A stretch of DNA of 58,621 nt, counting the filler, from Sphacelaria rigidula (Eukaryota): NCBI GenBank assembly GCA_964200075.2. It is 6 parts of 6 records of this genome, joined end to end, with 100 filler letters (N's around TTAATTAATTAA, not from the genome) between each part and the next. Parts side by side here need not be neighbours in the genome. Positions count along the whole stretch, not along the records: positions 19,577 to 29,263 come from CAXNAA020007963.1; 5 more parts are not named here. One strand, given 5' to 3'. The notes below the pieces were generated by a model. That model was given only the letters and a program-made list of their open reading frames with translations. It was not told the origin of the DNA and did no database searches. Made by a program: the position numbers and the translations under genes. Of this stretch, positions 1,851-48,935 are shown piece after piece. Every line of letters begins with the position of its first letter. Positions within the stretch are counted from its first letter, which is position 1.

Positions 1851-3339
1851 TGAAGAGGAATTTACCTCGGACAGGAGGACAAGCTATTGAAAAAATATAT
1901 AAATTTACAGATTTTGTACCAAAATATGTTGAATTTAAAAAAAAAAAAGGTCAGGGTTGTTTACCGAAACACTACCACATGACTGTGCAGGGCTTTGCCG
2001 ACAAGCCTACACAGGGCTGTAAACCCAACCCTGGGGAAAACCCTATCAAAACGCTACGAGGGGTACAGGTTTGGATTTTCACTGTCAGGGTTTTTTCACA
2101 AATACTGTGGAGGACCCTTTACGGACCCTGCACAGTGCGCCCCACAGGGTGCTATCTGTCCACGGGTGCATGATGTACCGGTTCAGAGGGGATGTTCATG
2201 TGAACGGGTACACTGAGTGAACATGCACATGTACGGATAGATTTATGCTGACGCACGGGTACTGGTGGTCAAGTCTGTGTGACTACAGTACCATACTCAG
2301 GCCGGCTGCGGCTCTGCCGTCTGAGTTCACTCCACATATGATCCCTCTATCATAGGATCGACTCCGTCAAGGCACTCTCCAATAATACAAAAGACAAAAC
2401 TATCTATCCTTCGCCACGGGCCATGGAGTATAGTGTATGGTGCGTACGGTGCCGCAGTGTACGGTACAGTCAATGTTGTGCCGGTCTGTGCACTTTCGTA
2501 CAGGACGCTGGTCGATCGTACATTTGCCGGGGCAACCTGTGGCCAATCACTGCGACAAAAAACAAATCACGTCAAGTCACGTCACACCAGCTCCCTGTTA
2601 GAATTTTCAACGGCTCCCATTAGGGTTGGCCTAAGACCAACTGTTATGGCAACGAATCTCGATTGTTTTGAGACCCTGATCTTGAAAAAATCGAGGGGAA
2701 TCAAATTCGCGAACTCAAAATCGGGGGGGACGTTTTATGGTACAGACAGACAATAGTATCAAAGAATTGTGAAACAGTTCTGTACACAGACGGCCATTTC
2801 TGCATGGGTGCGGTACTGCGTACTCGTACATGAAGCCGACGAGTAGACAGGCGGTGACTGATCCTTCGAGTACAGTGTCGTACATTGGTACCCTAGGGTG
2901 ATACAGTGCAGGTCACTTCATCAGTAGAGTGCATGATAATGCCGTGTGGTAGTACATGATGACACAGTCGATTTTGCCAGAACAGTGAACAAACGGTTCG
3001 CGAGCAGAGCTTAGTAGTGCAGTGCCGTACATCACCCGTTAAGTCCAGCAACAATAGACTGGGAGAGTACAGTAGCAATCGTTACAGTGATATATATGGC
3101 AGCGTAGCGCAGCATAAAGTGTTACCGTCGCCGCAGCGTACGGCGTCAGCACTTATTGTGCGCTAGTCAAGCCCCGTGCAAAGCTGCTTCAGCAACTGAC
3201 GCAGGCACGCCCTGCGCTGTCACGAGACTGTCTTCTGCTACCGTTGCAAAATATCAAACGCCTTGTCCCCCACTATTATACGTCAATGCACGTACGTCAC
3301 CCCAAACAAATCGGGGGGAGTCACGATTTTTACGTCCAA

Positions 3340-3620
3340 GACTTGGTCCGAATCAACAGCGGGTCCTGAAAAATAAGGTTCATCTCAGAAATGAGGTTCA
3401 AGTGGCATATCCTTTTTGTAAGGACGACGCCAAACAGTAGCACAGAGCGAAACCATCTTTCCCCCCAAAACTCCGCAACTGTGAACCATCAGCTGTGGCT
3501 AAATGCACCGGACGACTGCGGTGTACACGCGTGTCGATGACGATATCACCAGAGAGAGAAGCAACGATAGAGAGGAAGCTCCTCGCCCGTGTCCTTTGTG
3601 TGCCCTCGCTGGGCGATTAC
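3340..3620 (-). pseudogene. Decayed retropepsin (LTR-retrotransposon aspartic protease) remnant
   Basis: The minus strand reads GAC ACG GG/GCG AGG AGC TTC CTC, i.e. DTG-ARSFL with a 1-nt frameshift. It continues VHLATADGSQLRSFG and later PSLG, a typical retropepsin layout. Confidence 0.5.
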
Positions 3621-3934
3621 TATTCGCTGGAGAGACTCTGGCATCATGCATGTTACCAGCACGTGCCAAATTTCTCATGTGCCTGTAGGTATCCCCAAAG
3701 TACATCGAGCTGCGGAGAGATTTCGTCTCTTTGTTTGTGGAGGTCACCAATGCGAAGATCGATTTCTCTCTACCTCTCCTTTTGGACAGGACGCGCTTTT
3801 GTGCGCTGAAAAACTGGGCAATGTTCCCGTCACGGCTACTACTGTTCTCTGTCACACACATGCCAGCAAGGACGGTGCGCTACGCGGCAAAAATTACAGA
3901 TGATCCAATTTGAACTTGGGGGGTGTTATTCATC

Positions 3935-4187
3935 GAGTCATCCTACGATAGGGGGGAGGGGGGTATTTTGGGCCATTTGTTGCTCGAAATTTCGAGTCAA
4001 ATCGTCGTTGAAACCAGCAACGGTTGTTCGAAAAAGCGTGTTGTGGATCGATAACGCTCATCCATACTGCCTGGCACCGTTTGGAACCAAATACAACCGC
4101 ACCGCAAGTGTGGAAGGATGTCTGACACACTCATGAGCCTCTTTTTTCGTGCAACCAAATACCCCTCCCCCTATCGTAGGATGACTC
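3935..4187. mobile_element. Complete 253-bp MITE, GAG..CTC termini, 4-bp TSD CATC (Sola-like)
   Basis: TIRs GAGTCATCCTACGATAGGGGG / CCCCCTATCGTAGGATGACTC; CATC at 3931-3934 and 4188-4191. Confidence 0.85.
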
Positions 4188-4927
4188 CATCGTTGATTTC
4201 ACCCGACATGAGCACAAGAGCTTGCCACAGGCCGGTTGGGGTGTGTGTGAGAGAGAGATCAAATCTTGTGGACACCTTCTTGACATGCGGAGTGAAAAAT
4301 GATACCCAACTATTGCTAGCGTGGTTCAGAGGGGTGCGTCAGCTGCAATCTGGAGCTTTCGTTGCTCTACTCTACTAGCTTCCGTCTGCACAGCTAGTAA
4401 GAACATGTTATTACATACCCAAATTCGGAACAGCTTCTGTATGGAAACAAGACAGTTCGTTTTCGAAACTACGTCCAGATCATTGAAATGGTTCTTCTTA
4501 CCCGAGGAACTGCGGCTTCCCCATCCCGCCGTCAGGTATGAAACAAGGACGAAAGAGTTTTTGGAAGTGCATGTGACGCCCACGGGAGAACGCAGAGTTT
4601 CTCGTGTATGAAGACCTCCGTTTTCCTACCTGCAAATAGTTTTATGCCCGTTGCTTTTTAATAAGAGTGTTAAGCAGTCGATTTGTGTTCCGTACTGTAC
4701 TGATTGGCGGATGCCAATCGCAGCAAAGTTTGGTGGTGCTATTCAAAAGTATCTTCGAACGTTTGAACGGACCCCAAGCGGACACTTTTCCTCAACACAA
4801 GTACAAGTCTTACTCCTTCACACTTCGCCTCAATGCGAATGCATACTAGTTCCAACCACCCAGCTCAGTACAACCGTCGCGGCACTCAAGGACGAAATAA
4901 GAACGGGTAACAAAGCCAGACGGAACT

Positions 4928-5373: not shown

Positions 5374-6525
5374 TTTATTTTGGTGTTTGGGACGTTGCCG
5401 TCTCGGATTTCGGCGGCGAACCCGAAGTGGTCTCGGCTGGGCCCTCTACTCTAAGATAAAGGTCTGCCCATAACTTATTTTGTATTCACAAGTGGTATTT
5501 ATCTCCTTACGGTAGGTTGTGGAGAGACTGGTGGACTCGTTTCAGTACCAACACCCCCAGGTATCATCATGTAAATGCTTTGTCTTGTGTGTCGTTCGAA
5601 TCACCTGTTGCATGCTAATGATAATAACAACTGCCTCTACTGCAGTATGGTTGTGCCCTTGCATTCCTTGACTTAAACTACGCTCCCCGCGTCTCGTACA
5701 CAGTTCATGATAAACAGAGCATGTCGGTGGCGTTTATTTCATGCATATCCGTTTTTGAACTGGTACGGTATACTAGCTGGTGCAGCACGGAGCATGTGGC
5801 AGTACTAGATCGAAAACCTGGTTCACCACACCTTCAAGTGCAACAACGATAGACTCGCTGGCATCTCTTCTGCGTGTTTTCGAATAAATCGTGATGAAAC
5901 ATGAGGAACAATACCGTGACGGGCTGCTACATGGGAGTACAACGCTGTAGTGCACAAGCGCGCTGGCACGGTGTCGGCAATACGGAAATGCTAGCGCGCG
6001 TGCTGCTCGAAAATAACACGCTCCGCTAGTGTAATCTAATTCAGTGCATTTTATTGAATTTCAATGCAGAGGTTACCCTTCGGGTGTGGAGCCGATACTG
6101 TGTACCAACCGCGGCGTGACGCCTGCAGCGGTACTACATGCTCACTGCACAAGCACACCGCAGAACGTCGCACCCTTAGCCTATCCCTGTTCTGCAGTGA
6201 TTTCGCGTTGTCCTATGCAGTTCGCCACACCACGCGTGCAGCCTGTTCAAGTGATTCAAATACCCAGCAATGCTGGATCTCCGCAGAACCGGGGATCGGG
6301 GTGACGTACGAGTACCGACAGGCAAGTGTGTGCAAATGCGGTACAGTGCAGCTGAGGGTGCAGGAGCAGCCTGGCCCTCGAGCTTACTCTCTTTCAGCTA
6401 CCCTCCATCTCATCAGCACTCTCCCAAGTTACAGTAGAACTTGGATGCTCTTCAATAAAAGATCTAAAACCATTACCCTGTGCCTGAGCCAAGGAATACA
6501 CTAGTGATCAATCGATTGGGCAAGT

Positions 6526-9400
6526 ATGGCTAGGAACGATAGCAACGCTCGGTCTTCTGGTGAAAGGCTAGACGGGCTGACGAATCAAATTGAAAACACG
6601 ATGAATCTGTTCAGTGGTCAGTATACCACACTGACCGAGATGGTCAGAGACGTACAATCTACACAAACTGTGATCCACGATAGCGTGGATGGCATCGAAG
6701 ATCGAGAGTTCGGAGGCGCGAGGTGGAGTGGCGTCGTCGAAAGCGAAGAAGACCAAGCAACACAACAACACCAGAATGACAGCTCAGCCAACCACAGCAC
6801 ACCTCAAGGTCGAAGACGCAGCCGCGAGGGCGAGCAGGGAGCTCCGAGCGGGAGCGACCACAGGAGAGCAAGCGACGGAGCAAGGGATGTAGACCCCGCA
6901 AGTGAGTCTGTCACAGTATTCGGTCGCGAGCGACCAAGTGTCCACAATGTTTCTCGGGTTCCAGTTTTCAAGGCAACTGTACCTAAGTTCTCTGGGAAGA
7001 GTTCAGAGTTCAACCACTACAGTCACGAACTAATCATGTTTGCCAGGAGCGAAGCAATTGATTGGGTATTTACTATGTCGGAAGATTGGGCATACGATGT
7101 GGAGGTGCGAAACAAGGCGTTATCCTTGAGTTATCTTGAAGTAAGGCACGTAAAGGGCACTGTAGCTGCAAACGTGAGAGCGAGGCAAATGTTGGTGGCG
7201 AGTCTCGAACATAAGCGAGACCGGGATGTTCTGTTCCGAACACCGTCTCCTGCAGCTGTGTGGCGTGAGTTGAACGATTTCTACAGCCCAGAGATCAACG
7301 GGGCTAGATTAGCTCTCCTAGAAAAATATGATCACGTGAAGATTGGAGTTCGCGGTGATCCCGTTTAAAAACTAATCGAGATGGAAGAGGTGGCGAGGGA
7401 ATTACAATCACACGACTACAACATCATCCTGACGGAGTCACAAACCCTCCTCAAATTTGTCAATGCGCTTCCTTGCGAGTATAACTACCAAACACAGGCG
7501 TTGGAGGAGTGCGAGGGTCCGCTCACGAGGGAATTCGGAGTGACGTCGGTTCGAAAACGTTTCGAATCGGCACTTTTCAAGCAGGAACTCGCCAAGAGAA
7601 AGAAGGCTTCCCCGGGTGACCAGGCCCTTGCCGTCAAGGGCCATCCCAGCAAGCCTAACGTCTCACACCGGAAAGGTAAACCGGGAAAGACCCAGAACCC
7701 AGGCCGCGCGGGTGATGGGGGGCAGGGCAAAAACAACCAGTCGCTGGCTCCATCATCAACGGGCCAGTCGGGGGCTGCGACGCCGTGGAGGTGCCACGTT
7801 TGTAAGAAGATGACCACACATCGGGCGAGAGACTGTCCAGACAGGTGTTGCGCTAGGTGCGGGAAGAGAGGACATCACTTGATTGACTGTCAAAGCACTG
7901 CGGAGGACGCGGCGATTGTGATGGGCGTGGTGGAAGACCTGGTGGACGACGACTCAGTGTGTTCGGATGCTGATGCAGAAGCTTTCACCAGCATCGACAT
8001 GACGATGGATGAGGTCAACACAGGTGAGTATGCGTTTGTAACTGGGAAGGGGTATGTGGAGCAGTCAGATGAGGGCGAACCGTGGGTACTTGACACGGGG
8101 GCCACTTCGCACTTTTCTCCTGATTCGAGTAAGGTGCCGGATTATAGAAAATGCAATGTTTGGGTACTACGGTGTGCGGGCGGTGGTACCTACCCGAACG
8201 TGGGAAGAAGAAACTTGACTCCATCTTTACGATCTGACGGACGTGATGTAGTCTTGCATTTGAAAACTGTAGACCACGCTCCTTGCGTCCGTCATCATCT
8301 GTTGTCATTGACCAGGATGTCTAACGCAGGTCACACCTACATTGGGTCTAGCAACGGCTTCCGGGTTGAGTTGAAGTCAGGCAATACCCTGAAAATCCCC
8401 GGTCAGCACAGACAATTGATAATGCACGCCCAACGCATCTATCCAAATGGTCATGACAAGCATGCGTCAGTATGCGCTGTGATTGCCCCGGGGAAACTAC
8501 CTAACCCCCGAATTGATTATATCAACGATTTCCATTGCAAACACGCACATGCACACGAGGATCTGCTACCGCAGACTGCAAAGCAGCTCGGAGTGGAGCT
8601 GCGCGGCGAGTTGAGACCGCGCCGATGATACTCGGAAGGAAAAGGGCTGCGACAGCCCATCCCAAGATCAACCCACACACGAGCGGTTGAGCTAGCTTCC
8701 AGAGTGTTTGTCGATCTTACAGGTCCGAAACCAGTTAGATCTCGGGGAGGAAAGTTGTACATGATGATAGTACGTGATGATTGCTCGCGGCATACCAGAT
8801 TGTTTTTTCTGAGCACAAAGGACGAGACTGTACAGTGCTTTAGTAAATACATCGCAGAAATCCACCCGCGAAAAATCGAGAAGGTCCGCAGTGATGGTGG
8901 AGGTGAATTTTTGGAGGGGGCGTTCGTGGAACTATGTGATGGAGAGAAAATAAAGCAAGAGAAACCAACTGCTGACTCCCCACAGTTCAACGGCGCAGCG
9001 GAACAGGCAATTGGCATCATAAAGTTGGCCGGCCTTGCAGCCAAAATTCAGGCATCGGATATGTACCAGAACCAGAATATTCCCACTAGCACGAATCTGC
9101 GGGCGGAACAAGCTAACTGGGCATGCCATGCTTTGAACTATACTGCGACCTCGGCCAACCCGGCAAAGAAGATGCCACTCGAAATGTGGCACGGAGTACC
9201 ACCGGCAAACAACCTTCTTCCTCTTTTAAAGCCTGGATATTGTAGGGTTCAGAGGCCAGACAAGTTACAACGAAAAGCTCAGAGGTGCTGGTACGTTAGC
9301 CCAGCCCCAGGATACCCGCGCGATGCTATGAGAGTAATGACGGAAACAGGATAAACTATTACGACCAGGCACGCAACATGGGTGTATGTTCCCCCAACTC
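6526..9400 (+). mobile_element. Ty1/Copia gag-protease-integrase polyprotein with in-frame nonsense codons (RT/RH absent before the gap)
   Basis: ORFs 6526-7368, 7381-8628 and 8704-9354 share one frame. Motifs: two Zn knuckles (CHVC..H..C; CARCGKRGHHLIDC), protease WVLDTGATSH, integrase FVDLTGP / RSDGGGEF / NGAAE. PR-IN order is Copia-type. Confidence 0.92.
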
Positions 9401-9688: not shown

Positions 9689-9788
9689 NNNNNNNNNNNN
9701 NNNNNNNNNNNNNNNNNNNNNNNNNNNNNNNNTTAATTAATTAANNNNNNNNNNNNNNNNNNNNNNNNNNNNNNNNNNNNNNNNNNNN
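9689..9788. other. Assembly spacer (N44-TTAATTAATTAA-N44)
   Basis: Six-frame stop linker flanked by Ns; it is artificial. Confidence 0.97.
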
Positions 9789-9829: not shown

Positions 9830-10980
9830 ATGAACCTCATTTTATAGAATCCTCTGTTAGATGATGTGATCATCATAGGGAGCCCTACGATGGAGGCGCT
9901 GGGTATTGACGTGTACAGTAGCTTAGGTGCTTGTGCACGTGCAAGAAACACTTCGGTGCGAGGTGTGAACATGCCTGATTTTACGGACTGTCGGCGTATC
10001 AGTATTGCGGTTGACGCTATATAGCAACCAGGAGATCGGGCGGAGTCCGTTTATTCCTCAGTCGGGCGGGTGTTGTCGAGAAGCCCGACGATGAGCATAT
10101 TCCCGGAACAAGAGCTTGCTGAGCTTGATGTTGCGCTGGAGGAGGCAATACAAGTCGCCTCGGATAAGGGCATATCGGAGAGCGATGTAAGCCAGATTTG
10201 TGAGCCTGTACGGAACAGAGCGAGCATTTTTAGGCGAGTGCTGCATGGTTCTCCGCCTGCTCGCGTCGAGCCCTTGAAGGTGAAATTCAAACCTGCTGCT
10301 GTGGAGGTAAAGGCTCGGCCGAGGGCGTACTTTCCGGTCAGGATGGCGTGGTTGGCACGCTGCATCGCAACATTGGTGGCGCTCGGGCTCGTGTACTACA
10401 GTTTGCAGGTAGAGTGGGCGAGAGCGGCGATTGCAACGCCCGAGAAGTCCTGTTTTCGCTGGATGAGTGCATACAAGGCAAGGAATGAAGTTTCCCGTCA
10501 CCACAAGGAAGTGGTGCACGGTGCTCGCCCAGGGAAGGTGCTTCATTTCAATTTTCTCAGTGTTGGCCAGGGCGGTCCGTGGGGAGATCATGGCTTGGAC
10601 GAAGGAGATCCGTTCAAGTACATATTGGTAAGGATGGATGACCTTAGCAACTTTGTGCGGTTGACGCCCGTGGAGTCTTGTACGGCGGCGACGACGGTGA
10701 AGCATCTGCTGACATGGTGCAAAGCGCTGGGGCCGCAGGAGGGATGGGTCAGCGATACGGTATCGCAATATGAGAATCGTGTGGTGAGAGTGCTCAAAAG
10801 GGCGCTGATGGATCGCAGATTCGTGGTGGCCAACTCGCGGTTGTCACATCGTGAATGTGAGCGAATGGTGCGTGACATTGTTCGTACCTTGAAGGTCATC
10901 ATACAGAGAGGAAGACGCAATGCCAACGCCTGGGTGGCTTTGGTACCTGCCGTGCAGTGGGCATTGCACACTGGTTTCGG
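9830..10980 (+). pseudogene. Ty3/Gypsy pol remnant: protease tail and RT start fused directly to integrase (internal deletion)
   Basis: FRRVLHGSPPARVEPLKV..EWARAAIATPEK jumps at ~10510 to VHGARPGKVLHFNFL..MDDLSNFV..WVSDT..ERMVRDI..VQWALHT; homologous to 29364-31300 and 53500-56180. Confidence 0.88.
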
Positions 10981-12289
10981 GACAGCTGTGAGAGCTGTTG
11001 CTGCATCTAGGATGCGAGGAGCGACCGTTGGAGTGGAAATGCTACTCTACGGTTTGGACGAGATTGTAGCCGGAGAGCTGCTGTTTCTCAGGAGGAGCGC
11101 AGGAGAATTAAAGGCAGGCATTACCTGAGGTGCTCGATGTTGCGGTGAGCGCAGGGTTGGGTGACGTTAAGGAGCAAGTACTAATGGAATTGCTTGTTGA
11201 GAATGAGGAAGCACCTTGTGACTTGTATACCTGAATCGTTTTGTGGACGATTGTAGGTGATGGTGGTGTGGTTCCTGGACCTGTGTGTTGTGTTGCTCTG
11301 GTTGGCACGCATGATACATGGTGGTTTCTGCAAAGAAGCTGCTGAGTGAAATATGAGCATGCAGGTGTGACTGATGTGCATGGTATCTGATGAAGAGTCA
11401 GAGTGAGGCAGTTTTCAATACGCTGCTGTGTGCTGAATGAAATAAAGCTCGTATATTATTGTTCGCGCAAAAAGTGGAATCATCTTTGTGCGGTTTGCAA
11501 AAACTGACTGTAGGAGATGGTGATTGCTACTGCTGGCGTGAAAATGAGCGGAAACTACGAAATGCGTAGGCTTGTATGTGAACAAGTGTAACGTGAGTAT
11601 TTCCAGGGGTTGACGATAAAAGAAATCGTGCGCGAATACAGTGATATTTTACTGTGGCACATCTTTGATGGCTTGTCATGTGTTTGGATAAGCGCGTGGA
11701 TGATGTTTCGCATCTGAAAAATGGAGAATGTGGATGGTGTGCCCATTTTTCTGGAAGGAGCACCGCATATTTGTTCTGAGCTGCGTCAGTTGGAACTGAG
11801 TCAAAAGGTGCGAGCACGATTGTAGGCAAAGTACGGTATCAAGCTTTGAGTGCATGGTATGATTGAATGCTACGGTTCGAAAGGGTATTATCCTCGGCGC
11901 GTTTGCTTTGTGTGAGCATGCCACGACTCGAAATTGCCGTTGAATGAATTATTGACTCCAATAAATTCGATTGAGACGCTATGTTCAAGTGTCATTGTTC
12001 AGCGTTTTGCAAATGATCATTTTCTTTGTGAACATGACATAGCATGGTCATGTGTCACTAACAGGCAGACAAAGGTAGCATGAACGTGTTTGTCGGTGTC
12101 TACTGTTTGTCAAACTTGCTTTCTACTTCGCGTAGTGCGGAGTTTCGGGGGTGCTGTAAGTTAGTCCACCTCCAGTACACGTACGTGCAGGTTCATGATG
12201 ATATACAAGTGGAACAATCTGCTGTAGGCGTTTTCTATTGGTTGACAGACTTGCGGGTCTGGTCGGCAGACTGTGTGGATTTGAACATC

Positions 12290-18135: not shown

Positions 18136-19400
18136 ATGGCAGCGCGAAGGAAAGGGGGAACCAGCGAGACGGTTGATGAGGTGAAGTTTGCAGTAACCGA
18201 ATTGACCTTGGGTGGATCCTTGAAATTGCCCGAATATGGGCGCGTATTCAGTGAGCAAGCTTCCAGACGCTTTTACCAAAAGTATCGCGACTATGAGCAG
18301 GCAGTGGGAAAAGTAACCAAGGCCGGTCGGTCAAGTGCGCACTCCTGACCATGCAAGAGTTGGTGCCAAAGCACATCCAGAACTGCGTGTCTGACACCAT
18401 CTTTGACGGGTCACCACTCGACGAAGACGAATTGCAGCAAGGGATTGCACGCCATGCCAAATGCTGGATCGATATGGAACTTGATCCTTCCGAAGCTGCA
18501 GCAGGCGTGAAAAAGGCCCTTGCCGCACGGTCTGAACCGATTGCAATGGGTCGACTTGAAGGGCAATGGAGTTCATTACAGGACTACTTTGCGGAAAACG
18601 CAGGTGCCGAGTGCGTTTTCCTTGAATCTGGCCGTACGTTCAAGGCTGGTCCAGCACACATTATTACCAGAGCCTTGGTCGCCGGCCTGACCCCACCTGA
18701 GTTCAAGAATAAAGTTCAAAATATACTTTACATGAAAAAAGACTGGAAAGAGAGCCCGAAAATGGTTTATGAGGCAGCTCATGACTTGGCGGGAAAATGG
18801 AAAACGGTTGAGGAGGTTGACAAACATCGCCGACAGCAACCGCAACTTAGGCAAAAAAGGGGCTTACAAGGCTCCAAAAACTTGACATCGCGTGCCGGCG
18901 CCACGGCTGCGGCCGGGGCAGCCGGTGCTGGCAGCGCAGGTAGTGGCGGTAAGAGCTTAAAAAAGCCCCACAAACCTGGTCCGAGCTATGCAGGTTGTTT
19001 TGAGTGTGGCGATAAGGGCCACTACAAGAAGGACTGTCCCAAACAGAGCACACCCGTGGCCGCGGTGAGTGCGTCCGGTGGGCAAGCGGGGGGCGGTAAA
19101 GGTCCTGCTCCCACACGGGCTGTTTTCCCGGGGGATGGAACACAAGGGGGCGCGAGTAGTGCGGATAGCATGGTGCCGCCCCAGCCTTCCGCTCCAGCTC
19201 CTGCAGCTCCAACCCAAACGGCGGCGGGACCGGCTCAGGCGTGGACGTCTCAGACAATGCCGGTATGGCGGGGTCTGCACACCGCTGAGGTTGCAGATTT
19301 ACAGGCTGAGGGTGTAATAGTTGACCGCAAACAGCGATGCTGCAGGGCCGACTTGTCCGTTCCAGGTTCCGCAGTCAAGAGCGTCTGCCCTGTTACTGCA
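18136..19400 (+). pseudogene. Ty3/Gypsy-lineage gag (frameshift at ~18340) with CCHC knuckle
   Basis: PEYGRVFSEQASRRFY..FKAGPAHIITRALVAGLTPPEFK..CFECGDKGHYKKDC; homologous to the gags at 32084-33221 and 57135-57902. Confidence 0.85.
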
Positions 19401-19476
19401 GTTAACAACAAATTGTGAGAATTGAGGTTTAACTTCGAGATGAGGCTCAAGCCTAAAACAGTGCCTTCCCCACACT

Positions 19477-19576
19477 NNNNNNNNNNNNNNNNNNNNNNNN
19501 NNNNNNNNNNNNNNNNNNNNTTAATTAATTAANNNNNNNNNNNNNNNNNNNNNNNNNNNNNNNNNNNNNNNNNNNN
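19477..19576. other. Assembly spacer
   Basis: N44-TTAATTAATTAA-N44. Confidence 0.97.
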
Positions 19577-20651
19577 ATCACCGCATGCCGCCGCTGCTAT
19601 GATGTCAATTTGCACACTACCCGCTGCTGTACATCATGTGTCCACTGCTGTTCACTGGAAGCTATACCGTAAGTTCCTTGAGATACCACACCCTTCAGAG
19701 CGAATTTCAAAGCTCGATCACTTTCTCTCGACGACATGGTTGCAACGCCGCCCAACTCAGCCCTGGCATCGCTTCTTGTGAGGAGTAAGTGAGCTTAGAA
19801 AACCTGTCTAGGGGATGTGGTATCTTGAGCGACCTACAATAGTGAGTGAGGGTGTCAGTGCCAGTGTACTACTCGGTCTTGTGCACTGCGGCCATACCAA
19901 AACAGTCATATCGTATCGAATATCGATATTCGATACGTATCGTGTCATTTTGAGAATATTGACAAAAATATTGATATCGGCGGTTGTGGTTCGATATTCT
20001 AAAATATCCAACGAACTTCATTCTCGGTCCGATATGCAACACTGGGTACAATATTGCTGTATCTACCCGATTGTGTTGGCCCGGGTTAATAACCCTTCGA
20101 CCACCGTGGAGGGGAGTATCCATCCGTTGAATCGGCATCATTTTGGCATGGAATCATCATCATGGGCGTCACGAATTAGTCTGGTGCGCAAAGAGGAGAC
20201 TGAGTGAGGCTGTGTCTTATCAAATTATTTTCGTATCGAAAACGTGCGGTCGAATCGAATTCGCTCGTTTCTGATTCGTCCACGCTGCTAGTTTTCTCAC
20301 ATGATTGAGAACATGAAGCCGTGGACGTATCAGGTAAGAGCAAATTCGATTCCACTGTACGTTTTCGAGTCGAAAACAGTTTGACAAGACACGGCATGAA
20401 CCCAAGTGTGCATACCGCAACCGAAAGTAGGAGGGGTACGTGTAGTGTTTTTTTGCCGATTTCACTTGAATTAAAAACACTCCGGAAATTCAGCGAGTGG
20501 AGTATCATCCAAGTGTCACCTGACACATTTTGACCCACGAACGAACGTGTCTATGCTTATGACATAATAAAAGTATCTCCAGCTCGAGGTTCCCGATAAA
20601 GTTATCTGTAAATTTCTGTGAACTATATACCGAGAATCAACGACGTCGCAT

Positions 20652-21890
20652 CACCCGCGGTATAGCGGCATCCTGGATAGCGAAACGCCCGATATAGCGG
20701 AATGAAGGTCTCTTGGCCCAATCTTGACCCTGAATAGCGGCATTTTGGGGTGGTTTGCCCCTCCAGTAGCGGCAATCTGCCGTTAAAAGAATCCCTTTGT
20801 CACCCTGCTGGGGGGTCGGAAAAGTGTGGCGCCGCCGTCGTACGCGAAGCTGTCTTTGCATTTTGGTCCTCCCCATAGAGTAAAAGTACGCAGAGTCGTG
20901 TGGCATGGAGGAGGTCGGCCTTTTTTTCCGCAAGGCAAAGCTGGGTTTCCTTGCAGTGGAGGCCGCTACACCGGGACATCAGAGCGTTCATTAAATCATA
21001 GCGGAATTCATTTGCTAGACGCGTGCGGCGAAACGTCGCAACGGCAGGCAAGCGTTGATGTACTAGGTGGGGGAATATGTTTGATGTCCACATGCGTTGG
21101 TGCTTCTGGTTTAGCGCTATCGGCACCTTGTTTTTGTCGATATGTCGAGACCCTTCCTACATGGTGCGCCAAATATATCACCGCTGCGCGTTACTGTCCC
21201 GACACTAGTGGTGGACAGAAGTCGGAGCGCTTCCACGCGAATGCAGAACACAACAACTAAATAATTGCTGCAAAGTGATCATTTTCAGTTGAATGACAAC
21301 GCAGTGGCAATTACACGATCATACATCTCAGCAGAACACACACCACCAGTTATTGTAGCGCCCAGGGGAAGAGATTCAGTGAAAATGTGTTGTTTTCTAT
21401 ACGAGGAAGAAGCGTTTCCCTCGATAACGGCCTAAATGCCGCTATTAGGGCCCTAATAGCGGCACTTTTGCCGTTATTCGGGAATAGCGGTACTGCCCTG
21501 CACGCATAGCGGCAGTTTCTTTGCGTGACACTATATGCCGCTATATCGGGGTCGCTACACGGGTGGCCACTGGGGTGCCTACATCCTCAAATTTGGACGT
21601 TACAGACCTTGTAATGCGTGAGAGGACCGGGTGCTTAGAGGACCACATCGGAATTTGAACATCCCTATGATTAGGGTTAGGATTAGGCTTAGTGTTGGGG
21701 TTGTGGTCAGTGGTGTGGTACCTGCAGGGACTGATCCGATTGCTATTGAAAAACGTCCATCCTGAGGTGTTTTGAACTACGGCGCGGTCCTCTGAGCACG
21801 CGGTCCTCTCACGCATTACAGACCTTGTGCAAGGTCTGTAACGTCCAAATTTGAGGTTGCAGGCACCCCAGTGGCCACCCGTGTACTGTA
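20652..21890. mobile_element. Tc1/pogo-like non-autonomous element with ATAGCGGC sub-repeats
   Basis: The right TIR ccgctatatcggggtcgc[TA]ctgta is restored when the inner MITE is removed; atagcgg clusters occur at both ends; the left end is degenerate. Confidence 0.55.
21558..21883. mobile_element. TA-flanked MITE with ~80-bp TIRs and internal telomere-like motifs
   Basis: TA|CACGGGTGGCCACTGGGGTGCCT...AGGCACCCCAGTGGCCACCCGTG|TA; TTAGGGTTAGGATTAGGCTTAG at 21671-21692. Confidence 0.88.
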
Positions 21891-22180
21891 CCTCTGATAA
21901 TACTGTCAAACGAAAGTCACTCGATACTCATAAGAACAGGTTGTGGGCCGGTGATCGAACATGAAGGAGATTCAAGGACGTCGCATCACCCGCGACGGCG
22001 CCATGCCTACCAAGTATCCCGACGAGGCGTTGTAACTCTATCCTCGTCTGTCCATTGTTGGCGAGGTGCCAAATGGTCCCTGAGTCCCTGAGGAGAGAAA
22101 TAGTATAGCGGCACGCCGTTTTCTCATTGGCCAAGAAACTACGTCCTCTCTAGTCGTGGACTTGGACATATACTGTACTG

Positions 22181-22430
22181 CAGTATAGAGGTATCTCAAA
22201 CTCGAGGTTCAGGATACATTGAACTGTTGTGAATCATTGTGAATTGTATCGAGATTCCCAAAGTTTGAGAACCCTCTTCTAGCAATTAGTCTTCCCATCA
22301 AAAACTGCAAGTCTTCTTTACAATAGAGGTAGTAGGTATCTCGAACTCGAGGTTCCCCCAATATACCTGACTGTAGATTACTGTGGAATATACCAGGAAC
22401 CTCGAGTTTGAGATGTACCTCTATTATATT
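22181..22430. mobile_element. Small MITE-like inverted repeat
   Basis: tagaggtatctcaaactcgaggttc ... gaacctcgagtttgagatgtacctcta; a related motif occurs at ~20570. Confidence 0.6.
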
Positions 22431-22561
22431 GAACATGGAAATATTTTTGGAAAATGATGCAAATGCACTCTCCGACCGTGAATAGAGTCTCGGAAAATGT
22501 TTTTTTTGTCATGTCAGAGGGCAAATATCTCAGGATCAGAGTACAGAATAATAAAAACACC

Positions 22562-23605
22562 TACCGTGGGGGTCCCGATATAGTGCGGGTTATATAGTGC
22601 GCGTGCTCGATATAACGCGGGGGTTAAATCGTTTGGCACAACTTGGACCCCTTTATAGTGCGCGTGCCGCACTATTGGGGGCACCCATATATAGTGCGGG
22701 TTTGGTCCACCCCGCGACCCTATATAGTGCGGGTATGACGTCACCCCCGCGGTATATGCGGTCAAACCAACACGCACACACGCACAAATCATACACAGCC
22801 GCGTGAAGTACAGAGTACAGGTAGAGTATTTTGACGCGTAGAGCGATTTGCGTTTTGCCGCACGCACAGAAGTTACTGCTGTAATTTTTATTTGCCGGGT
22901 CTAGCGGGTGCCTGACTTCCGCGTGTGGTAAATGAGTCGATTAGTTGAGAGTTGGCGCATTTTTCTTCGTGCATTCAGGCCGACCTCAATGACGTTTTCT
23001 TGGAGCAACAGAGGTAGAGTGTGCGGGAAGTAGGGACTTCCGGGATAGATCCTTCTTGCTTGCCGGGTTTTTTCCCCCGAAGGTGTCTGGGTCGTGTTGA
23101 AGACGGCGTTCCGTTGCGCAGGTGCAGGTTTCGTGTGTAGCTTGAACTATATGATGAATCCCCGTGACTATTTTCGTAGTCAACAAGTGGATGCGAAAGC
23201 AGACTGAAACAACCATGGGACTTTGCACACGTAGCCAGTTGGTACGCCCAGCGTGCGAACATGTCATGAACGAAGTACTGTGCAGTACTCAACTACTCGT
23301 ATAACTTTACTCACGTTCAGGATGCGGATTCGCCGTTGCGATATGCTGTCCTCTTTTTACTATGAAGAGACGCAGGATTCAACACCTTGCTTGCGTACAT
23401 ACACCTTGCTATTGGTTGTTTCCTATGCTTGCAACAAGTGATGTCGTCAAGAGTGCGCCTTCCCGTACTATTGGGGGTTCTGAGAAACTCGAATAGTGCG
23501 GGAAAGCGCACTATTCAGGCGCAATTATATATAGTGCGCGTGCCCGCTATAGTTCGGGTTTTACCTCGTGGCACATACCCGCACTATATCGGACCGCCCA
23601 CTGTA
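22562..23605. mobile_element. pogo/Tc1-like MITE with TATAGTGCG sub-repeats
   Basis: TACCGTGGGGGTCCCGATATAGTGCGG ... CCGCACTATATCGGACCGCCCACTGTA; TA ends. Confidence 0.78.
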
Positions 23606-23772
23606 ATCGAAAAAGAGGTAAGGGGATGTCATATTCCGCTGAGGGGAGAATGATTTTTCTCTACACTCTTATCCTGAGACATGTTTTGCACTCTTGAATG
23701 ACATGAAAGCGTTTTCCGAAACTCTCCAATGTGTTGCCTCGTTCATCCTTGAAACAGTCCATCCGCGTAATT

Positions 23773-24204
23773 CAACAGCCGATCATCGAAATTGCTGAGA
23801 CTTTTCATTGAGGATGACAACCCGGAGGATTAAACTTCGTATCCACGACATATGTTTCCGTTCCTTCACCTACTGGTAGCTATTGACAACTGCTACACGC
23901 CCAACAAATTTCGATTTCGATAACCGAAATGCTGGGGTCCTAGATGAACAACCAATTTCGGGGAATCTAGGTGATCCGATCGGATCGCCGGAATTCTCCG
24001 AAATTAGTTGTTCACCTAGGACTCCAACATTTCGGTTATAATAATCACATTTTGTACGACGTGTAGTACTTGTCAGAAGCTACCAGTAGGTCACGGAATG
24101 GAACCATGTTTCTAAGATTCGTTGTGGATACGACGAATATTTTACTCCTCCATGTTCTCCTCCTCAATGAAAAGCTCCATCCTTAATTTCGATTGTCGGC
24201 TGTT
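23773..24204. repeat. ~430-bp spacer-less imperfect palindrome
   Basis: Centre GATCCGATCGGATC at 23973-23986; arms pair, e.g. cacctactggtagct/agctaccagtaggt and aacagccga/tcggctgtt. Confidence 0.85.
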
Positions 24205-24754
24205 ATTTGTAAAACCCCGGGTTTATACCGAACAATCTCAACCTCCGCTCATTCTCGAACAAAAACTGCTCTTATTCATCAGAATCCTCTGTACTAAACA
24301 TGGAATTCTCAAGTTGCGGGTGGATTCGTTTCGAGGATTAGCGAAGCCACACACATCACGGTCGGAGAGTGCGATTTGATTTTTGCTTCGACCCAACGAA
24401 ATGTTGTGGCGCCGCTAGTGTTGTGTGATGTTCCGTCTTTTTCTTCATTTGTTGAAATCAAGAGGCATTGTATTGGATATCTTTATCTCAATGTTCACCA
24501 CTTCTCTTGTTTTTGGGCCTGCCACCAGCTGTGTTTGAGAACTGCCGTGCTTGACACATATGTATTATACGCACCGCGGCGTACCACTACTGCACGCCAC
24601 TATACACCGTCTAAAGGTACTCCCACAAGGCCGTACAGGCCTGCTGGTGATAGATTTGTGTGTGTATATACAAGCGGAGAGGGGCGGGGGTCCTATACTA
24701 AGTTGATTTCTGGTGTTGCTTTGTTTTGGCGCACGCCGAATCGTATGTAGCCAG

Positions 24755-26180
24755 CCCGTTTGATGTCTTCATGGCTTACCTGCCGGCCGGGATTGACATC
24801 CGTTTCTTCTCGGCAGCGGTTTGTTGCACTTTCAAAAGATGGGCCTCTTGTTTCTCACTGTTTTCTCGATGGCGGACTACTGCTGCATGTGTTCACAGGT
24901 GGAGAACGGTCCAGGTGCATGGCACGATGATGATTTCCCTGCTGACTTTGTTATCTTCACCGTCGCCTTCATAACACACTTGCGATTTCCAGGACAAGAG
25001 CCCGTAGACTCAAGGAATCAACACATCCCCTCTCCCCGGTACCGGCCTTACTCTTTGTTGTCAATCATCGTAGGAGCACCGCACAAGCCCGTCAACCTGT
25101 GCGGAATTGTGTTCAGTTCACCAACTCTCATTCTAACCTGCCGAGACGACAGAAACCATATGGGAAAGTATCTACTTCGGTTCGTTCCCACGTAATCTCG
25201 CCGAGCTAGTGTTAATGTACTGCACCCCGTAGACCACTCATAATAGGGCACAGCGGTAAAAATGTACCATGTAAGTGTGGATATGTGAAACGCCACAAGC
25301 GTCTGCCGAGGCCTCGATAATTTCTTGACACGTACCTCGTCCCAAGGGTAGGTTTTCCCACGGCCATGAGATGCACACAAGATATCGTGTAGCTTGAGAG
25401 CCTCTCATTCCCCCTTCTTTTGTCCGAGGTGTCGATCACTTGGTACTACGCCTTTGGGGTGTGGTTCAAGCCGTGACTGTGGGGTTTGGTGTACACTCAC
25501 ATCGGAATACATTCCGCAGCTCCGCACATTGTAGGGCGGTAGTTTCCGTACTACTGTTGCATATACCCGATAAGAGCTTCGGGCCGAAGACGCTTCACGC
25601 ATGTGTTCCGAGGATGGTGCGGGCTGGCTCCCATCACTATGTTTGGCTTGTGCGCAAAACAGACTGCCGAACACGAACCGTCATCCTGTGCCATGCGTCG
25701 TTCACCATATTTGACGAGCAACCCAATAGTTTCAGAGCACCAACAGTTGTTTGGATATCACCCGTACGAAGGTAGCGCCAAGATGCATGACGGGTGTTTC
25801 AACTACTGTATTAATCTGCATGTACCGTGTTGATGTTTTGCGCCTTTCGTGCGTTGCTCTCTCTACCCCAGTTTCCCAACAACCTGGAACGGCAACGGAA
25901 CGAGCTCTTTGGGTATGCTGCAGCTCTGCTGTCCAGGGCTGGAACGAGCTTGCCTCGTCACGCCGAAGCGATTATCAAGTTGTTCCGTGAGTCGGCGATA
26001 GCTGTCAACTCTTGGGCTGTACTCAAGACCGTCCGCGATGGTTCGCTTCCCACGCTCGAGCCCAGGGCCGCCCTGCTGAGCTCCGGTGGTGGCGTGGCTA
26101 CCCGCCCTGCTGACCCCTCGAGAAGCATGGGCGCTGAATCCAGTAGCGTAACGCCTAGCACCGAAGCGACGGCGAAAGAG
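24755..26180 (+). CDS. Spliced exons encoding a putative 2OG-Fe(II) dioxygenase (TET/JBP-like) domain
   Basis: Exons ~24755-24818, 24899-25167, ~25575-25616 and 25872-26180 join to FFSAA|VENGPGAWHDDD..FVIFTV..LCGIVFSSPTL..FGPKTLHACVPRM|FPNNLERQRNELFGY, giving HxD...H...RxxLxxY. Two internal junctions are ambiguous. Confidence 0.5.
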
Positions 26181-26668
26181 GTATGGATGCGATGATGGTG
26201 TACTATGGGGGGGATGCGGTAGGGACGGGGTAAAGATGCTGTCTGGCGAGACGTCTTGGCGTGGTGTGTGATATCGAGAGTAGCAAGGCACGTCGGTAGC
26301 GTGGCATGCGGAGCTAAGCGAACGAAACCACCTGCAACACGTTCTGACCGTCGTGACGACTTGTCCTTGAGGAGTCGTCGAGGCATTTTGTACGAATCGT
26401 TTGTTTTGCTTGTGACATATAAAAGAGATTAGCTGACTGTAGTGTATAAGCATAAGTAGTCCGAGTAATCCCCAACACATCGCGAACCCTTTTTCCAATT
26501 CGAAAATTACTTCACAAGTGCTTGCGGTGCGCCCTGCAGAAGCTTTACAGTAGAGGGAGTTGGGTGTCTCGGTGGCTTTGCCGTGCTGTAAACGACGAAC
26601 CCGAGGCATTCCGCGCTTCTCTGAGAGCCTGGGTCGTCATCACGCTCAACAATACAAATATTTCCGCA

Positions 26669-27281
26669 AGATGAGGTTGAACACTAAAATGGGGGTTGAA
26701 GTCAAATTTCGAAAAGTCACATGTTACGTGGAACAGTTTTGCAAAAGCAACCAATCGGTCATTTGAGTTGTCTGTTCAAACTTCCCCTCGCTTTTCTTGT
26801 CGCGCATTGTTACTCCGGTGTCTACAACTCCTTCAGTAGATTCGAAACGGCTCTCACCAGGTGAGGGAAGCCGCTGTTGATTGGATTCTCTCGTCTTGAA
26901 AGAATATGGTACCGGAGTCTATTTCGAGTCCTAGGGAGATTTGCAAGGGGCAGAGAGTCAGTTCCTAATCTATGAAATTTCCTATTTTGACATCCATAAA
27001 ACGTTTCCAGCAAAGGGAATTATTTTCCGAAACACCAAGGGCGGCAGTTCAATTCTCATGGAACGTTTTCCTTTTTCATCATTTCGAGAAATTTCGACGG
27101 ACCTCCGGAACACTTTTGGATGAAACCCGAAGGATGCTAACGAAAGCACCCCTCTCTCACCTGGGAAGTTCCAACACATGAGTGAAATCCTGAGTTGGTT
27201 GTTTTTGCAAAACTGTTTCACGTGAAATGTGACTTTTCGGAAGGCTACTTTAAGCCCATCATACTGTTTGACCTCATTTTT
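26669..27281. mobile_element. Intronic MITE with ~120-bp inverted arms
   Basis: cgaaaagtcacatgttacgtggaacagttttgcaaaagcaaccaa versus ttggttgtttttgcaaaactgtttcacgtgaaatgtgacttttcg. Confidence 0.7.
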
Positions 27282-27495
27282 CATTTTTGTTTCTTTCCCC
27301 CTGAATGGCGGAAAGCGTGGTCCACCCCGGCACTACCTAATATGTGTACCTTACTTCAGCTACTACATACACCGAGAAATATGCGAACGTTTTCGAGGTT
27401 GCGAAACTGTCTCGGACTACCCAGGACAAGCAGTCTATACTGACAGAGTCCACTCGCACGTTTGAACTCTTGATATACAATGGCTGCACACGCAG

Positions 27496-27684
27496 AGTTT
27501 GGCGAAAGCTCTGGATGCGCTCCAGATCACACATGGCGCGCTCATGAAGTCGGAGTCGAGTAAGGTACAATTGGAGTCAAGGCTCCAAAAGACCGAGTCG
27601 GCGCTCGCTTGGACGGAAGCAGAGCTGCAGACTGAGCGAGAGAGACTGGCCGACGCCCTATATGCGTTGAGTGACGCTTTGCAG
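27496..27684 (+). CDS. Coiled-coil exon (phase 0/0) of the same gene
   Basis: cgcag|AGT..TTGCAG|gtaggt; SLAKALDALQITHGALMKSESSKVQLESRLQKTESALAWTEAELQTERERLADALYALSDALQ shows heptad periodicity. Confidence 0.7.
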
Positions 27685-27951
27685 GTAGGTGGCCAGGATG
27701 TTACGCTTTGTTGCCACCCGTTGCTGTCGTCGCTCTTTTTGGTCGCTCTTCCGTGTACAGCCAGCACCCGTTGGATGTTCAGCTTGTTCGGCCTTGGCTT
27801 GGTCACTAGTGGTCATATTTTCTGGTATGAGACGCAACGTCAACCAACGGCAAGCCCTTCACAGCAAACAACTTTCCGCTCGAACGAGAGTTCACGGCCG
27901 GTCCCGTCTTCCTTGTCTGCGCCTGTGCACTGGCACAATCACATATGGCAG

Positions 27952-28770
27952 GAAAGAGCTGCACCTGCATTCCCCTGTACGCCGTCTGGTAGAGCGGCGT
28001 TTAGAGAGGAGCACATTGCTCTCAAAATTCATTGCGCGAAACTCAAGCGTACTGCCGAGCTCGAGGTGAAGGGCCTCGGGTTCGTCGGCGACTGGTCGGA
28101 ATGGGTGGTGGACAGTGGACGCTTTCGCACCGGTAAGGTGCGTGTAACGGGGCAGAGAGGACGAGGCGGCCAGGGAGGCGTGTTCGGCCTCGAGGCCGTT
28201 GACGCGGCCAAGCAGCGCCGTATCCTCGAGGTCACGGGACAAAGAGGCGTCGTTGTCAAGACCGCTAGCAAGGTACGGCAAGGATTTTCACAGACGGGAG
28301 GAGTCAGTCAGGCCCACCGGGAGGATAGCTGCTGAGACGTTGTCGGGGTGTCTTCGATACAGTCCTCGCCTTGCCTGCCTTGCGCAGTACGTAGGATGTT
28401 ACCCTTTTGTCGTCAGCAATGTTAATGGCCCTGAGAAGGAATTTAAGGAATTTGCCCGGCACGTCCATGCGATGTTGATGTAAGCTACCGATCTGTTTTT
28501 GTTGTGCGTTGAAATAAGCTAAACTTGAACGACCGCGGTAGCGTGGTCGGGAAAATGTAAACACTGGTGCGTTTACTCGTACGGTTTACCACTGAGTACG
28601 CACAACTTGATGTGGGGTCGTATGAAGCACAGCCAACATTGCTGAAGGAAGGTCGTCGTGACATGCCTACTCTGGACGTGTCCGTGTTGTCACTGTTACT
28701 GTCGGTCGATCTAGGACCCGACCGAGGGGGAACTGGAGGGACTCAAGAACGAGCTCAGGTGCTTCGCGCG
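27952..28770 (+). CDS. Protein kinase N-lobe exons (27952-28272 and 28715-28770)
   Basis: Gly loop GRGGQGGVF and VVVK lysine, donor AAG|gtacgg. The next exon ctag|DPTEGELEGLKNELRCFAR|gtaagc supplies the alphaC glutamate. A possible further exon lies at 29007-29070; the rest is lost in the gap. Confidence 0.7.
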
Positions 28771-29263
28771 GTAAGCAATTGGTGTGCGGTGCCTGCGTGA
28801 CTTGGACGTTTAGCGCACATACGAAAGGTTCCACCCGTGTGCCAGCAAAGCACGGACGTGGTTGGTCTCTCCCTTGTATTTTCAAGGGGTATAAGCTATT
28901 TCTGTACCATCTGGTTTACCGTCTAGAGCTACAGTGACAGTTGCTCGGAAACGTTCAACGACCATCTAAGTGGTTTTGCTCGAAGGTTTTCCAAATTTAC
29001 CCCTAGGTTGTTCCGAATCATCATCGGCTCCATCGCACCATTGAAGGCAACACTCGTAGTTGATCACCTCGTTTCTCCTTTATTCTCATCTTGCGCTCTC
29101 ATTATTCCTCTCTCGCTCTCTCGTTCCCTCTCTCTTCTGTCTCTCCTCTCCCTCTTCTCTTTTCTCCCCATCCCCATCGTCTCTTCATTTTGTTTTGCTC
29201 TCTCTCTCTCTCTATACTTCCTCTGTCCCATAAGTCTGTATCGTTATGTTTGTACGAGCCCTT

Positions 29264-29363
29264 NNNNNNNNNNNNNNNNNNNNNNNNNNNNNNNNNNNNN
29301 NNNNNNNTTAATTAATTAANNNNNNNNNNNNNNNNNNNNNNNNNNNNNNNNNNNNNNNNNNNN
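29264..29363. other. Assembly spacer
   Basis: N44-TTAATTAATTAA-N44. Confidence 0.97.
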
Positions 29364-39049: not shown

Positions 39050-39149
39050 NNNNNNNNNNNNNNNNNNNNNNNNNNNNNNNNNNNNNNNNNNNNTTAATTA
39101 ATTAANNNNNNNNNNNNNNNNNNNNNNNNNNNNNNNNNNNNNNNNNNNN
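39050..39149. other. Assembly spacer
   Basis: N44-TTAATTAATTAA-N44. Confidence 0.97.
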
Positions 39150-47180: not shown

Positions 47181-48444
47181 TCATGTTCCACCTGGCCCAT
47201 GAAACCGGTTCTTACATGGAGTGAAGAAGGCCCTAACCTCGACCAGGCATTGGGTGCTGGAACATGTGACAGAGATGACGTAGGGCGGGGACCAGACGGG
47301 GAACGCAACAGCGGGCGTGGTCGGAGTGTTGCCGACGAAGACCGAGTTGACATCTACGCCGATCCAGTAGTATCCAAACTGAGACATGCCCTCGATTCCA
47401 GCAAATGCTAGCTCAAACTGGCGAAGCAAGGTAGCAATACGCGGGTGCACAGCAGCGGAATAGATCAGCGGCCATGAATTGATCAAGCTCAGGTGTTGAC
47501 AATGGTGGGCGTAGCACTCCCTATCAGCGACATACTGGGACCACTGAGCTCATGCAAGCGGGTTGGCGCGAGAAGACACCACGTTTCACAGACCGGGTCG
47601 TCCATTCATAAGCCAAAGCACACACAACTAAACAGGCAAACGGGTAGTAGGCTTAGTTTGGTTCCGGTAGGCTTCATTTTACAAACGTATCGCGTTTGTG
47701 GTACTATGTGTGCGCACCAAGTGGACATTACAGCATTATACCGATATACGGATCGACAGGGATCGATACCCTATCGTCAGCTGGATTTAGCAGATAAGAT
47801 CGGCGTCGAGTAAAGACATCAAAATATTGGAGGTATACGGTGGCCGATTCTGTGTTCAGAGCAGTCCACGTCGCATCTTCCCGCAGGCACAGATCACGTG
47901 TTTTACGTTGTTTCGAGCAAGCTGTGTTTGTGCACTCGTGAGGTGGTGGCCAATCGACGTACGAGATCTCCACCGTAAGGTCACATCCTTTCTTGCTACA
48001 GCTCGTGGGTTCTGGAAACATACTCACTGTACTTGAGGTCTGCAAATCGCGGCTGTCGCCGCGGAGTCCTTGCTGCCCGTCGACCGCTTCCATCATCTGT
48101 CGCCGACGCGCCATCGTCACAGTCACAATGACAGACCCCACTATTTCGTTGGTTACTGCGTCCCTCACGACCAGGTTGAACTCGCCACCATCCCTGGCCG
48201 CCGTGAGCAGATCCTGATAACTCATTCTGGCCAGAGCGATGGCGGCTCCCCCCGTGAGAGGGGTAGGTGCATGAGTGGGCGCTAAGGTAGTTGGCGCCGG
48301 GGTGGGAGCCGCACTGGCGGGGAACGGGTATATTTCAAAGGCGAAGGTACCGCCGCACGTGAGTGAGGAGTCTCCTCTACAAGGTGAGTCGCAGACGCCC
48401 ATACCGTGTATGTCATAGACGGTGCCCGCCTCGCCACACCAGCA
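47181..48444 (-). CDS. WSC-domain extracellular/cell-wall protein, 3' exons (copy A); 5' part lost in the gap
   Basis: cag|CWCGEAGTVYDIHGMGVCDSPCRGDSSLTCGGTFAFEIY (C-terminal half of WSC), PTPAPT linker, LRGDSRDLQ motif and a Cys-rich segment; last exon ~47520-47181. Confidence 0.72.
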
Positions 48445-48835
48445 CTGTATCATGGAAATGGCGTGAAGGCGATGGCGCGGAGATCGCACACAACGTTAGG
48501 ATCATGGGAAAAGATGGGAAGTCGAGCGGAGGGGAGTCGGAGTGAACTCGTGGCCAACAACCGTTCCCGTTCTACGATGATCCATCTACGCCGACATCTG
48601 CTAGTAGCAGAGACAACACAAACACGCATACAAGCGGGCTCGTGCTCACCTCCAATCCGTACTGTACCGCGTAGTACCGGAAAGGGGTCGAAGCTGAAGC
48701 GCAGGCAGCATAGCACACCTGCGATAAGAGGAGCCGTCGCGCGTTGCTGTGGTCAGAGTCATGCTATGATAGGGGGGGGGGGGGGGGGGGGGGGGGCGCC
48801 AGTGTGGCTGGGCGTGGGGGGGGGGGGGGGGGGGG

Positions 48836-48935
48836 NNNNNNNNNNNNNNNNNNNNNNNNNNNNNNNNNNNNNNNNNNNNTTAATTAATTAANNNNNNNNN
48901 NNNNNNNNNNNNNNNNNNNNNNNNNNNNNNNNNNN
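48836..48935. other. Assembly spacer
   Basis: N44-TTAATTAATTAA-N44. Confidence 0.97.

Follow-up and report, generated by a model that had tools for sequence, protein, structure and literature searches.

The TET/JBP-type dioxygenases dependent on 2-oxoglutarate and iron (2OG-Fe(II); family Tet_JBP, which we take to be Pfam PF12851) carry short motifs of the type HxD, G-x-h-F (h, hydrophobic), H-x-x-x-P and R-x-x-L-x-x-Y. In eukaryotic protein kinases (ePK) that are preceded by a coiled coil, a GxGxxGxV loop, a VxK motif and a Glu stand downstream of the dimerising coiled coil; the corresponding family is presumably Pkinase, Pfam PF00069 (for ePK also PF07714). Fungal KDZ transposons reportedly carry TET/JBP genes. 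All of these systems are called to mind by a locus of the brown alga Sphacelaria rigidula (assembly GCA_964200075.2), for which an earlier note had proposed a hidden spliced gene at 24755-29070, encoding a TET/JBP-like dioxygenase, a Ser/Thr-rich linker, a coiled coil and a protein kinase in one polypeptide. The locus lies on a 9.7-kb contig (CAXNAA020007963.1) within an analysed stretch of 58,621 nucleotides, here called the window, along which all positions are counted. Our analysis finds a real, expressed and spliced gene at this locus, and most likely no dioxygenase fusion.

Like the TET/JBP dioxygenases, the locus shows colinear short motifs that resemble all four of those listed, with a His-to-Arg spacing of 15. 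In contrast to these enzymes, it has no profile match, homologue or predicted double-stranded beta-helix, and the pieces that carry the motifs are unjoined in RNA-like contigs. With the coiled-coil kinases it shares the Gly-rich loop, the VxK motif and a Glu downstream of a coiled coil. Unlike them, it has no match to Pkinase or to a kinase in the PDB, the region of the loop is RG/RGG-rich with a VTGQRG repeat, and the catalytic and activation loops lie outside the window. As in the fungal KDZ transposons there are repeats on the same contig; however, no transposase or TET/JBP domain was detected in the open reading frames (ORFs) scanned at 24298-28332 (19577-24297 was not covered), and the retrotransposon ORFs of the window sit on other concatenated contigs.

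Transcript evidence was sought in 11 listed sequencing runs, 9 of which contain at least part of the stretch and none of which is recorded as RNA. Four runs of one study (X6, X7, X8 and X9), containing 8-29% of the stretch's words, were guessed to be RNA. They are stored as contigs, which were compared with the whole contig 19577-29263, strand and rare isoforms being invisible in this material; a border was taken as bridged with at least 31 letters on the shorter side. The segments 25872-26180, 27496-27684, 27952-28272 and 28715-28770 are exons of a real, spliced and expressed gene, with the following features.

25872-26180, plus strand: exon of the real gene, with the FPNNLE... frame open (FPNNLERQRNELFGY...); contigs of X6, X7 and X8 start to match at its acceptor, and its donor (26180/GT) is joined to 27496 in X7; GC content 0.61.
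27496-27684, plus strand: coiled-coil exon of 63 residues, both borders being GT..AG joints; GC at codon positions 1/2/3 of 0.60/0.43/0.67.
27952-28272, plus strand: Gly-loop exon with GRGGQGGV...VVVK (GRGGQGGVF...VVVKTASK), a candidate kinase N-lobe; both borders are joints in X9.
28715-28770, plus strand: short exon encoding DPTEGELEGLKNELRCFA plus 2 nt, a candidate alpha-C helix; entered by the joint 28272^28715 and followed by a donor GT at 28771.

All five junctions named in the earlier note have GT...AG in the genomic sequence, and the peptides that it quoted are all present in the frame and place given for them. Three of these junctions are seen in the RNA-like contigs as GT..AG joints at the exact predicted bases: 26180^27496 in X7 (shorter side 92 letters), and 27684^27952 and 28272^28715 in X9 (shorter sides 31 and 58 letters, respectively). 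The claim of a hidden spliced gene is thus borne out, with the coiled-coil exon and the exon of the Gly-rich loop and Lys spliced exactly as predicted. The 58 letters past 28272^28715 stop at 28770, adjoining the GT at 28771, so the last visible exon runs from 28715 to 28770. Of the 754 nt of the X9 contig, the listed piece covers 28088-28270, and from the approximately 513 letters that lie outside this piece and the joint, the mRNA would continue past the 3' end of the genomic contig. The confirmed exons have a GC content of 0.57-0.67, versus 0.46-0.55 for the introns. Single-base variants set the runs of this one study apart at 25916 (T>C), 26042 (T>G) and 26084 (C>T), so the gene is expressed from more than one allele, strain or paralogue.

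Over the 63 residues of the coiled-coil exon, one heptad register has 8 Leu among its 9 'a' positions (LLLKLLLLL). This pattern is convincing for a leucine-zipper-like coiled coil as judged from the sequence and, together with the RNA-like joints, upholds what had been proposed for this exon; the nine heptads are likely to form a dimerisation module. In the first exon, the sole in-frame ATG is at 26127 (MGAESSS..., context aagcATGg) and may be the translation start; the first 255 nt of the exon may then be 5' untranslated region. Such a start would agree with in-frame stops found upstream in an X8 contig, described below. We take the MGAESS at 26127 to fit the N-myristoylation pattern MGxxxS/T.

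The Gly-loop exon contains the VTGQRG repeat twice, in addition to the RG/RGG-rich stretch. Its sole relative found among 5.8 billion clusters is P0003, a 100-residue ORF on a 611-nt contig, which is 79% identical to it over residues 26-107 (82 residues) and diverges past the exon end. A search for homologues of this exon among longer proteins gave none, and neither did a search with the ORF 25815-26192 among proteins of near length. There were no matches to the FPNNLE exon in a phmmer search of the PDB, no usable match to the Gly-loop exon in the ESM Atlas, no relatives in a viral scan, and no paralogues of any exon elsewhere in the window by blastn. A metagenome match (L001) was rejected, since it lies on a bacterial contig and shares only GFVGDWSEFV, by chance; relatives with flanking sequence did not turn up in these searches.

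Upstream of these exons, the proposed dioxygenase would have been encoded by three further segments.

24756-24818, plus strand: proposed dioxygenase exon 1, PFDVFMAYLPAGIDIRFFSAA, an unsupported ORF fragment with no Pfam match, its joint to 24899 not seen.
24899-25165, plus strand: proposed dioxygenase exon 2, VENGPGAWHDDDF...RDDRNHMG, with HDD and GIVF in one open frame; most likely non-coding.
25575-25616, plus strand: proposed distal-His exon, SFGPKTLHACVPRM (TLHACVP), unsupported; the joint 25616^25872 was not seen in the four runs.

Neither 24818^24899 nor 25616^25872, the remaining two junctions of the proposed model, was seen in the contigs of the four RNA-like runs. Instead, contigs of X6, X7 and X8 begin to match at 25869, which corresponds to the predicted acceptor 25872 plus a shared CAG. 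The X7 contig (332 nt) shows 0 differences over 25869-25946, and its 254 upstream letters are found nowhere on 19577-29263. In the X8 contig 27 letters precede the acceptor; they too are found nowhere on 19577-29263 and are absent from the whole window, allowing up to 3 mismatches. In the exon's frame they contain TGA two and seven codons ahead of FPNNLE. The X6 contig simply begins at 25869. Other X6 contigs, of low depth (2-5), span 24563-25763, proposed exons and introns alike; two of these records (24563-24834 and 24825-24924) cross the donor 24818 and the acceptor 24899 unspliced, with shorter sides of 16 and 26 letters, below the limit set for a bridge. In X7 and X8 the bins at 24422-25713 have a depth of 0 and 25714-26359 is covered, the missing cover not being counted as evidence.

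No support for a dioxygenase was obtained from profile, homologue or fold searches. Pfam-A hmmscan at E<=10 assigned no family to five single exons, including 24756-24818, 24899-25165 and 25872-26177, and at E<=1 no TET/JBP or other family to 10 ORFs on both strands of 24298-28332 (among them 24702-24971, 24797-25192, 25398-25772, 25543-25830 and 27466-28332). A phmmer search with proposed exon 2 (89 residues) against 1.84 billion representative proteins returned two matches and no real homologue; the two, P0001 and P0002, were rejected as translated tandem repeats. The same exon had 0 matches in a phmmer search of the PDB, and its top score in the ESM Atlas was 0.84, with no family. An AlphaFold2 (AF2) model of exon 2 alone, with a predicted local distance difference test score (pLDDT) of 56.3, is too poor to judge a double-stranded beta-helix; this low-confidence model gave 0 Foldseek matches to the PDB at E<=0.001 and none at Z>=5 in a wide VIA search. 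The GC content of proposed exon 2 (0.49-0.53) is intron-like, unlike that of the confirmed exons. The proposed model has only about 30 residues ahead of the HxD, with a stop upstream of them at 24699-24701. So short a stretch before HxD is too little for the double-stranded beta-helix of the TET/JBP family. The HxD, the distal His and the 2OG-binding Arg motifs sit in three frames that are not joined in the RNA-like contigs.

The resemblance was also set against chance. The chain was defined as R..L..Y preceded by an H...P at a distance of 15±1 residues, any GT-AG intron of 40-400 nt being allowed between the two, a G.[LIVMFC]F in any frame 30-700 nt further up, and an H.D in any frame 60-400 nt above that. 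The finding itself supplied these definitions, which a reader's eye would, if anything, apply less strictly. In the real window, 5 of the 23 R..L..Y sites have an H...P partner that can be spliced by GT-AG, and the full chain occurs at one of them, the finding. When the window was shuffled 200 times with the base composition of every 1-kb block preserved, 48 of the shuffled windows contained the full chain (24%; mean 0.305 per window). The motif chain is not beyond chance.

The claim of a protein kinase stands at the level of motifs: GRGGQGGV agrees with GxGxxGxV, VVVK (VxK) follows approximately 26 residues on, the next exon encodes ELEGLKNEL, in which Glu residues are located 8-17 residues past the VVVK Lys, and both the Gly-rich loop and the Lys are invariant in P0003. 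However, no profile, PDB or confident fold match accompanies them. Pfam-A hmmscan found no family for 27952-28272 (E<=10) or for the ORF 27466-28332 (E<=1), phmmer against the PDB with the Gly-loop exon yielded only RdmE at E 0.46 and no kinase, and a PDB search with a two-sequence profile of the exon and P0003 had 0 matches. The AF2 model of the exon, built from the same two-sequence alignment, is of low confidence (pLDDT 38.7). The portion of the putative kinase domain within the window amounts to only about 57 residues. When the window was scanned for motifs in six frames, no HRD was seen, and the single DFG (43456) lies on another piece of the window and is flanked by stop codons; any HRD and DFG of the gene would lie off the contig, which the gene leaves after 28770. 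That the Gly-loop domain is a divergent protein-kinase N-lobe is, on its motifs, a tentative assignment, for which we would put the case slightly below an even one.

Taken together, we consider it probable that the locus holds an expressed, lineage-restricted gene with four visible exons, whose 5' exon or exons are off the contig, and that 24756-25616 is non-coding and resembles a dioxygenase by chance. The visible part of the gene spans 25872-28770 on the 9.7-kb unplaced contig, and the gene runs off the 3' end of this contig. Its product would consist of a Ser/Thr-rich stretch, followed by the nine-heptad leucine-zipper-like coiled coil and an unassigned C-terminal domain whose start is marked by a Gly-rich loop and a Lys. 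The segment 24756-25616 would be intron or upstream DNA and is most likely not part of the mRNA of the gene; its likeness to TET/JBP would be due to the free choice of frames and GT/AG sites. The single polypeptide of the earlier note, with a TET/JBP-like dioxygenase, linker, coiled coil and kinase on exons running from 24756 to past 28771, can point to HDD, GIVF, LHACVP and R-N-E-L-F-G-Y colinear with GT-AG sites, to the spacing between His and Arg, to an Arg motif that lies within an RNA-confirmed exon starting at the predicted acceptor, and to a FPNNLE frame that is open well upstream of the sole ATG. It lacks profile, sequence or fold support, however; both dioxygenase joints are unseen, a different sequence precedes the acceptor 25872 and in the X8 contig brings in-frame stops, the GC content of exon 2 is that of an intron, the room before the HxD is short behind the upstream stop, and the chain recurs in 24% of the shuffles. 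We give this polypeptide hardly any credence. It is also very improbable that 24756-25616 is the decayed relic of a TET/JBP-type gene, such as transposon cargo, now situated within an unrelated gene's first visible intron or ahead of it. The same motif resemblances, the two junctions that in the earlier note need read-through, as in a pseudogene, and the low-depth X6 contigs over 24563-25763 would suit a relic, but no homology is detectable even at E<=10, there is no copy elsewhere in the window, and the chain is within chance; moreover, the Arg motif would then belong to another gene, which breaks the very chain behind the resemblance.

A further explanation is that the copy in the window is a 5'-truncated duplicate, either a pseudogene or a haplotig fragment, and that the RNA contigs come from an expressed copy elsewhere. 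The variants at 25916, 26042 and 26084 indicate that multiple forms are expressed, with T>C at 25916 the sole form in X6 and X8. In addition, the genomic contig, a small unplaced one, is rich in repeats, and the RNA-contig match ends exactly at 25869. Against this, the window is matched without a single differing letter by the spliced contigs of X7 (record 15, 236 nt) and X9 (record 31, 183 nt) and, over 78 nt, by the X7 acceptor contig, and the break at 25869 coincides with a canonical acceptor, as for splicing and unlike the edge of a duplication. We regard a duplicate as unlikely.

Several points nevertheless weigh against the reading of a four-exon gene with a chance resemblance upstream. 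The RNA nature of the four runs is a guess. The evidence for in-frame stops is the X8 contig, the upstream letters of the exact-match X7 contig not being displayed; the X8 contig has 2 bases that disagree with the window, and with T>C at 25916 as the sole form in X6 and X8 it may originate from another allele or a paralogue. No stop interrupts the FPNNLE frame in the 104 codons ahead of ATG 26127; by a hand estimate this has a chance of about 4% at that GC content, a hint of a coding frame that extends further upstream. The 15-residue spacing of the proposed splice, which the chance test included, is presumably that of TET2. In addition, the profile, homologue and fold scans took single exons and ORFs rather than the spliced peptide, and a minor isoform with 25616^25872 could still occur. 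The Arg-bearing exon FPNNLERQRNELFGY, with its long open frame ahead of the sole ATG, could encode the final strand of a true TET/JBP-like domain, with the other strands in off-contig 5' exons of the allele in the window or in a rare isoform that uses 24756-25616, a reading that we consider extremely unlikely.

The window consists of six pieces of 9688, 9688, 9687, 9686, 9686 and 9686 bases, in non-increasing order of length, and the locus lies on the third (19577-29263), reaching to less than 500 bases from its end. The pieces appear to be separate, size-sorted unplaced contigs strung together by spacers with stops in six frames, so that two features that sit on different pieces would not neighbour each other. 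Both strands of the 9.7-kb contig together hold 58 stop-to-stop ORFs of at least 70 residues; ORFs of 90-130 residues are common across all frames, and one antisense ORF reaches 257 residues. Of the TE-rich (transposable element-rich) neighbourhood that had been described, the repeats on the same contig stand, but the copia-type gag, Pol and integrase ORFs sit on other pieces. The spacers and mobile-element features are as follows.

9689-9788, 19477-19576, 29264-29363, 39050-39149 and 48836-48935: linkers of the form N44-TTAATTAATTAA-N44.
6508-9354, plus strand: copia-type long terminal repeat (LTR) retrotransposon, three ORFs in succession that weakly match Retrotran_gag_2, Pol_BBD and rve; stop-interrupted and on a different piece.
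10025-11125 and 18297-19415, plus strand: retroelement remnants on the second piece, with a weak rve match and a zf-CCHC zinc knuckle.
26668-27280, no strand assigned: inverted-repeat element within the 1315-nt intron, with arms 26692-26786 and 27163-27257, 75% complementary (blastn arms 26668-26786 and 27163-27280).

The arms of the intronic element are about 95-120 nt long with an identity of 75-76%, consistent with a miniature inverted-repeat transposable element (MITE)-like element. Elsewhere on the same contig, nested inverted repeats are present at 21515-21885, with 56-nt arms that are 96% complementary and 218 nt apart, and 46-nt arms inside them. The summed contig depth over the four RNA-like runs is 1463-4491 at this site, far exceeding that of the exons of the gene, with many loose ends, which suggests a high-copy, transcribed, hairpin-forming repeat; an Rfam scan gave no family match there. 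At 23838-24121 we observed a spacer-free palindrome of 284 nt, with 142-nt arms that are 77% complementary, covered by the RNA-like runs at a contig depth of 300-636; its only Rfam matches are sub-threshold and resemble microRNA precursors. Over the whole contig, Rfam and tRNA scans gave only sub-threshold hairpin matches. On another piece, a 255-residue ORF on the minus strand (47731-48495) has a weak WSC-domain match (E 9e-4, under the gathering score).

A literature search on TET/JBP in brown algae, Ectocarpus and stramenopiles, in which the slash form 'TET/JBP' is not searchable, returned nothing bearing on brown-algal TET/JBP, which is no proof that nothing has been published. A preprint on a Chlamydomonas giant virus (10.64898/2026.10.09.758095) was not relevant to this question and was set aside.

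If true, the TET/JBP-kinase fusion would have represented a new architecture, surprising in the brown algae, of which, according to the earlier note, Ectocarpus is reported to lack detectable 5-methylcytosine; similarly, the Arg-exon reading would, if true, mean a fusion of base oxidase, coiled coil and kinase-like domain in an alga. Short catalytic motifs are easily strung across frames and GT/AG sites, as the proportion of shuffled windows that give a chain illustrates, and no inference on DNA base modification is to be drawn from the locus. The locus is an ordinary orphan, a lineage-restricted spliced gene fragment on a small unplaced contig.

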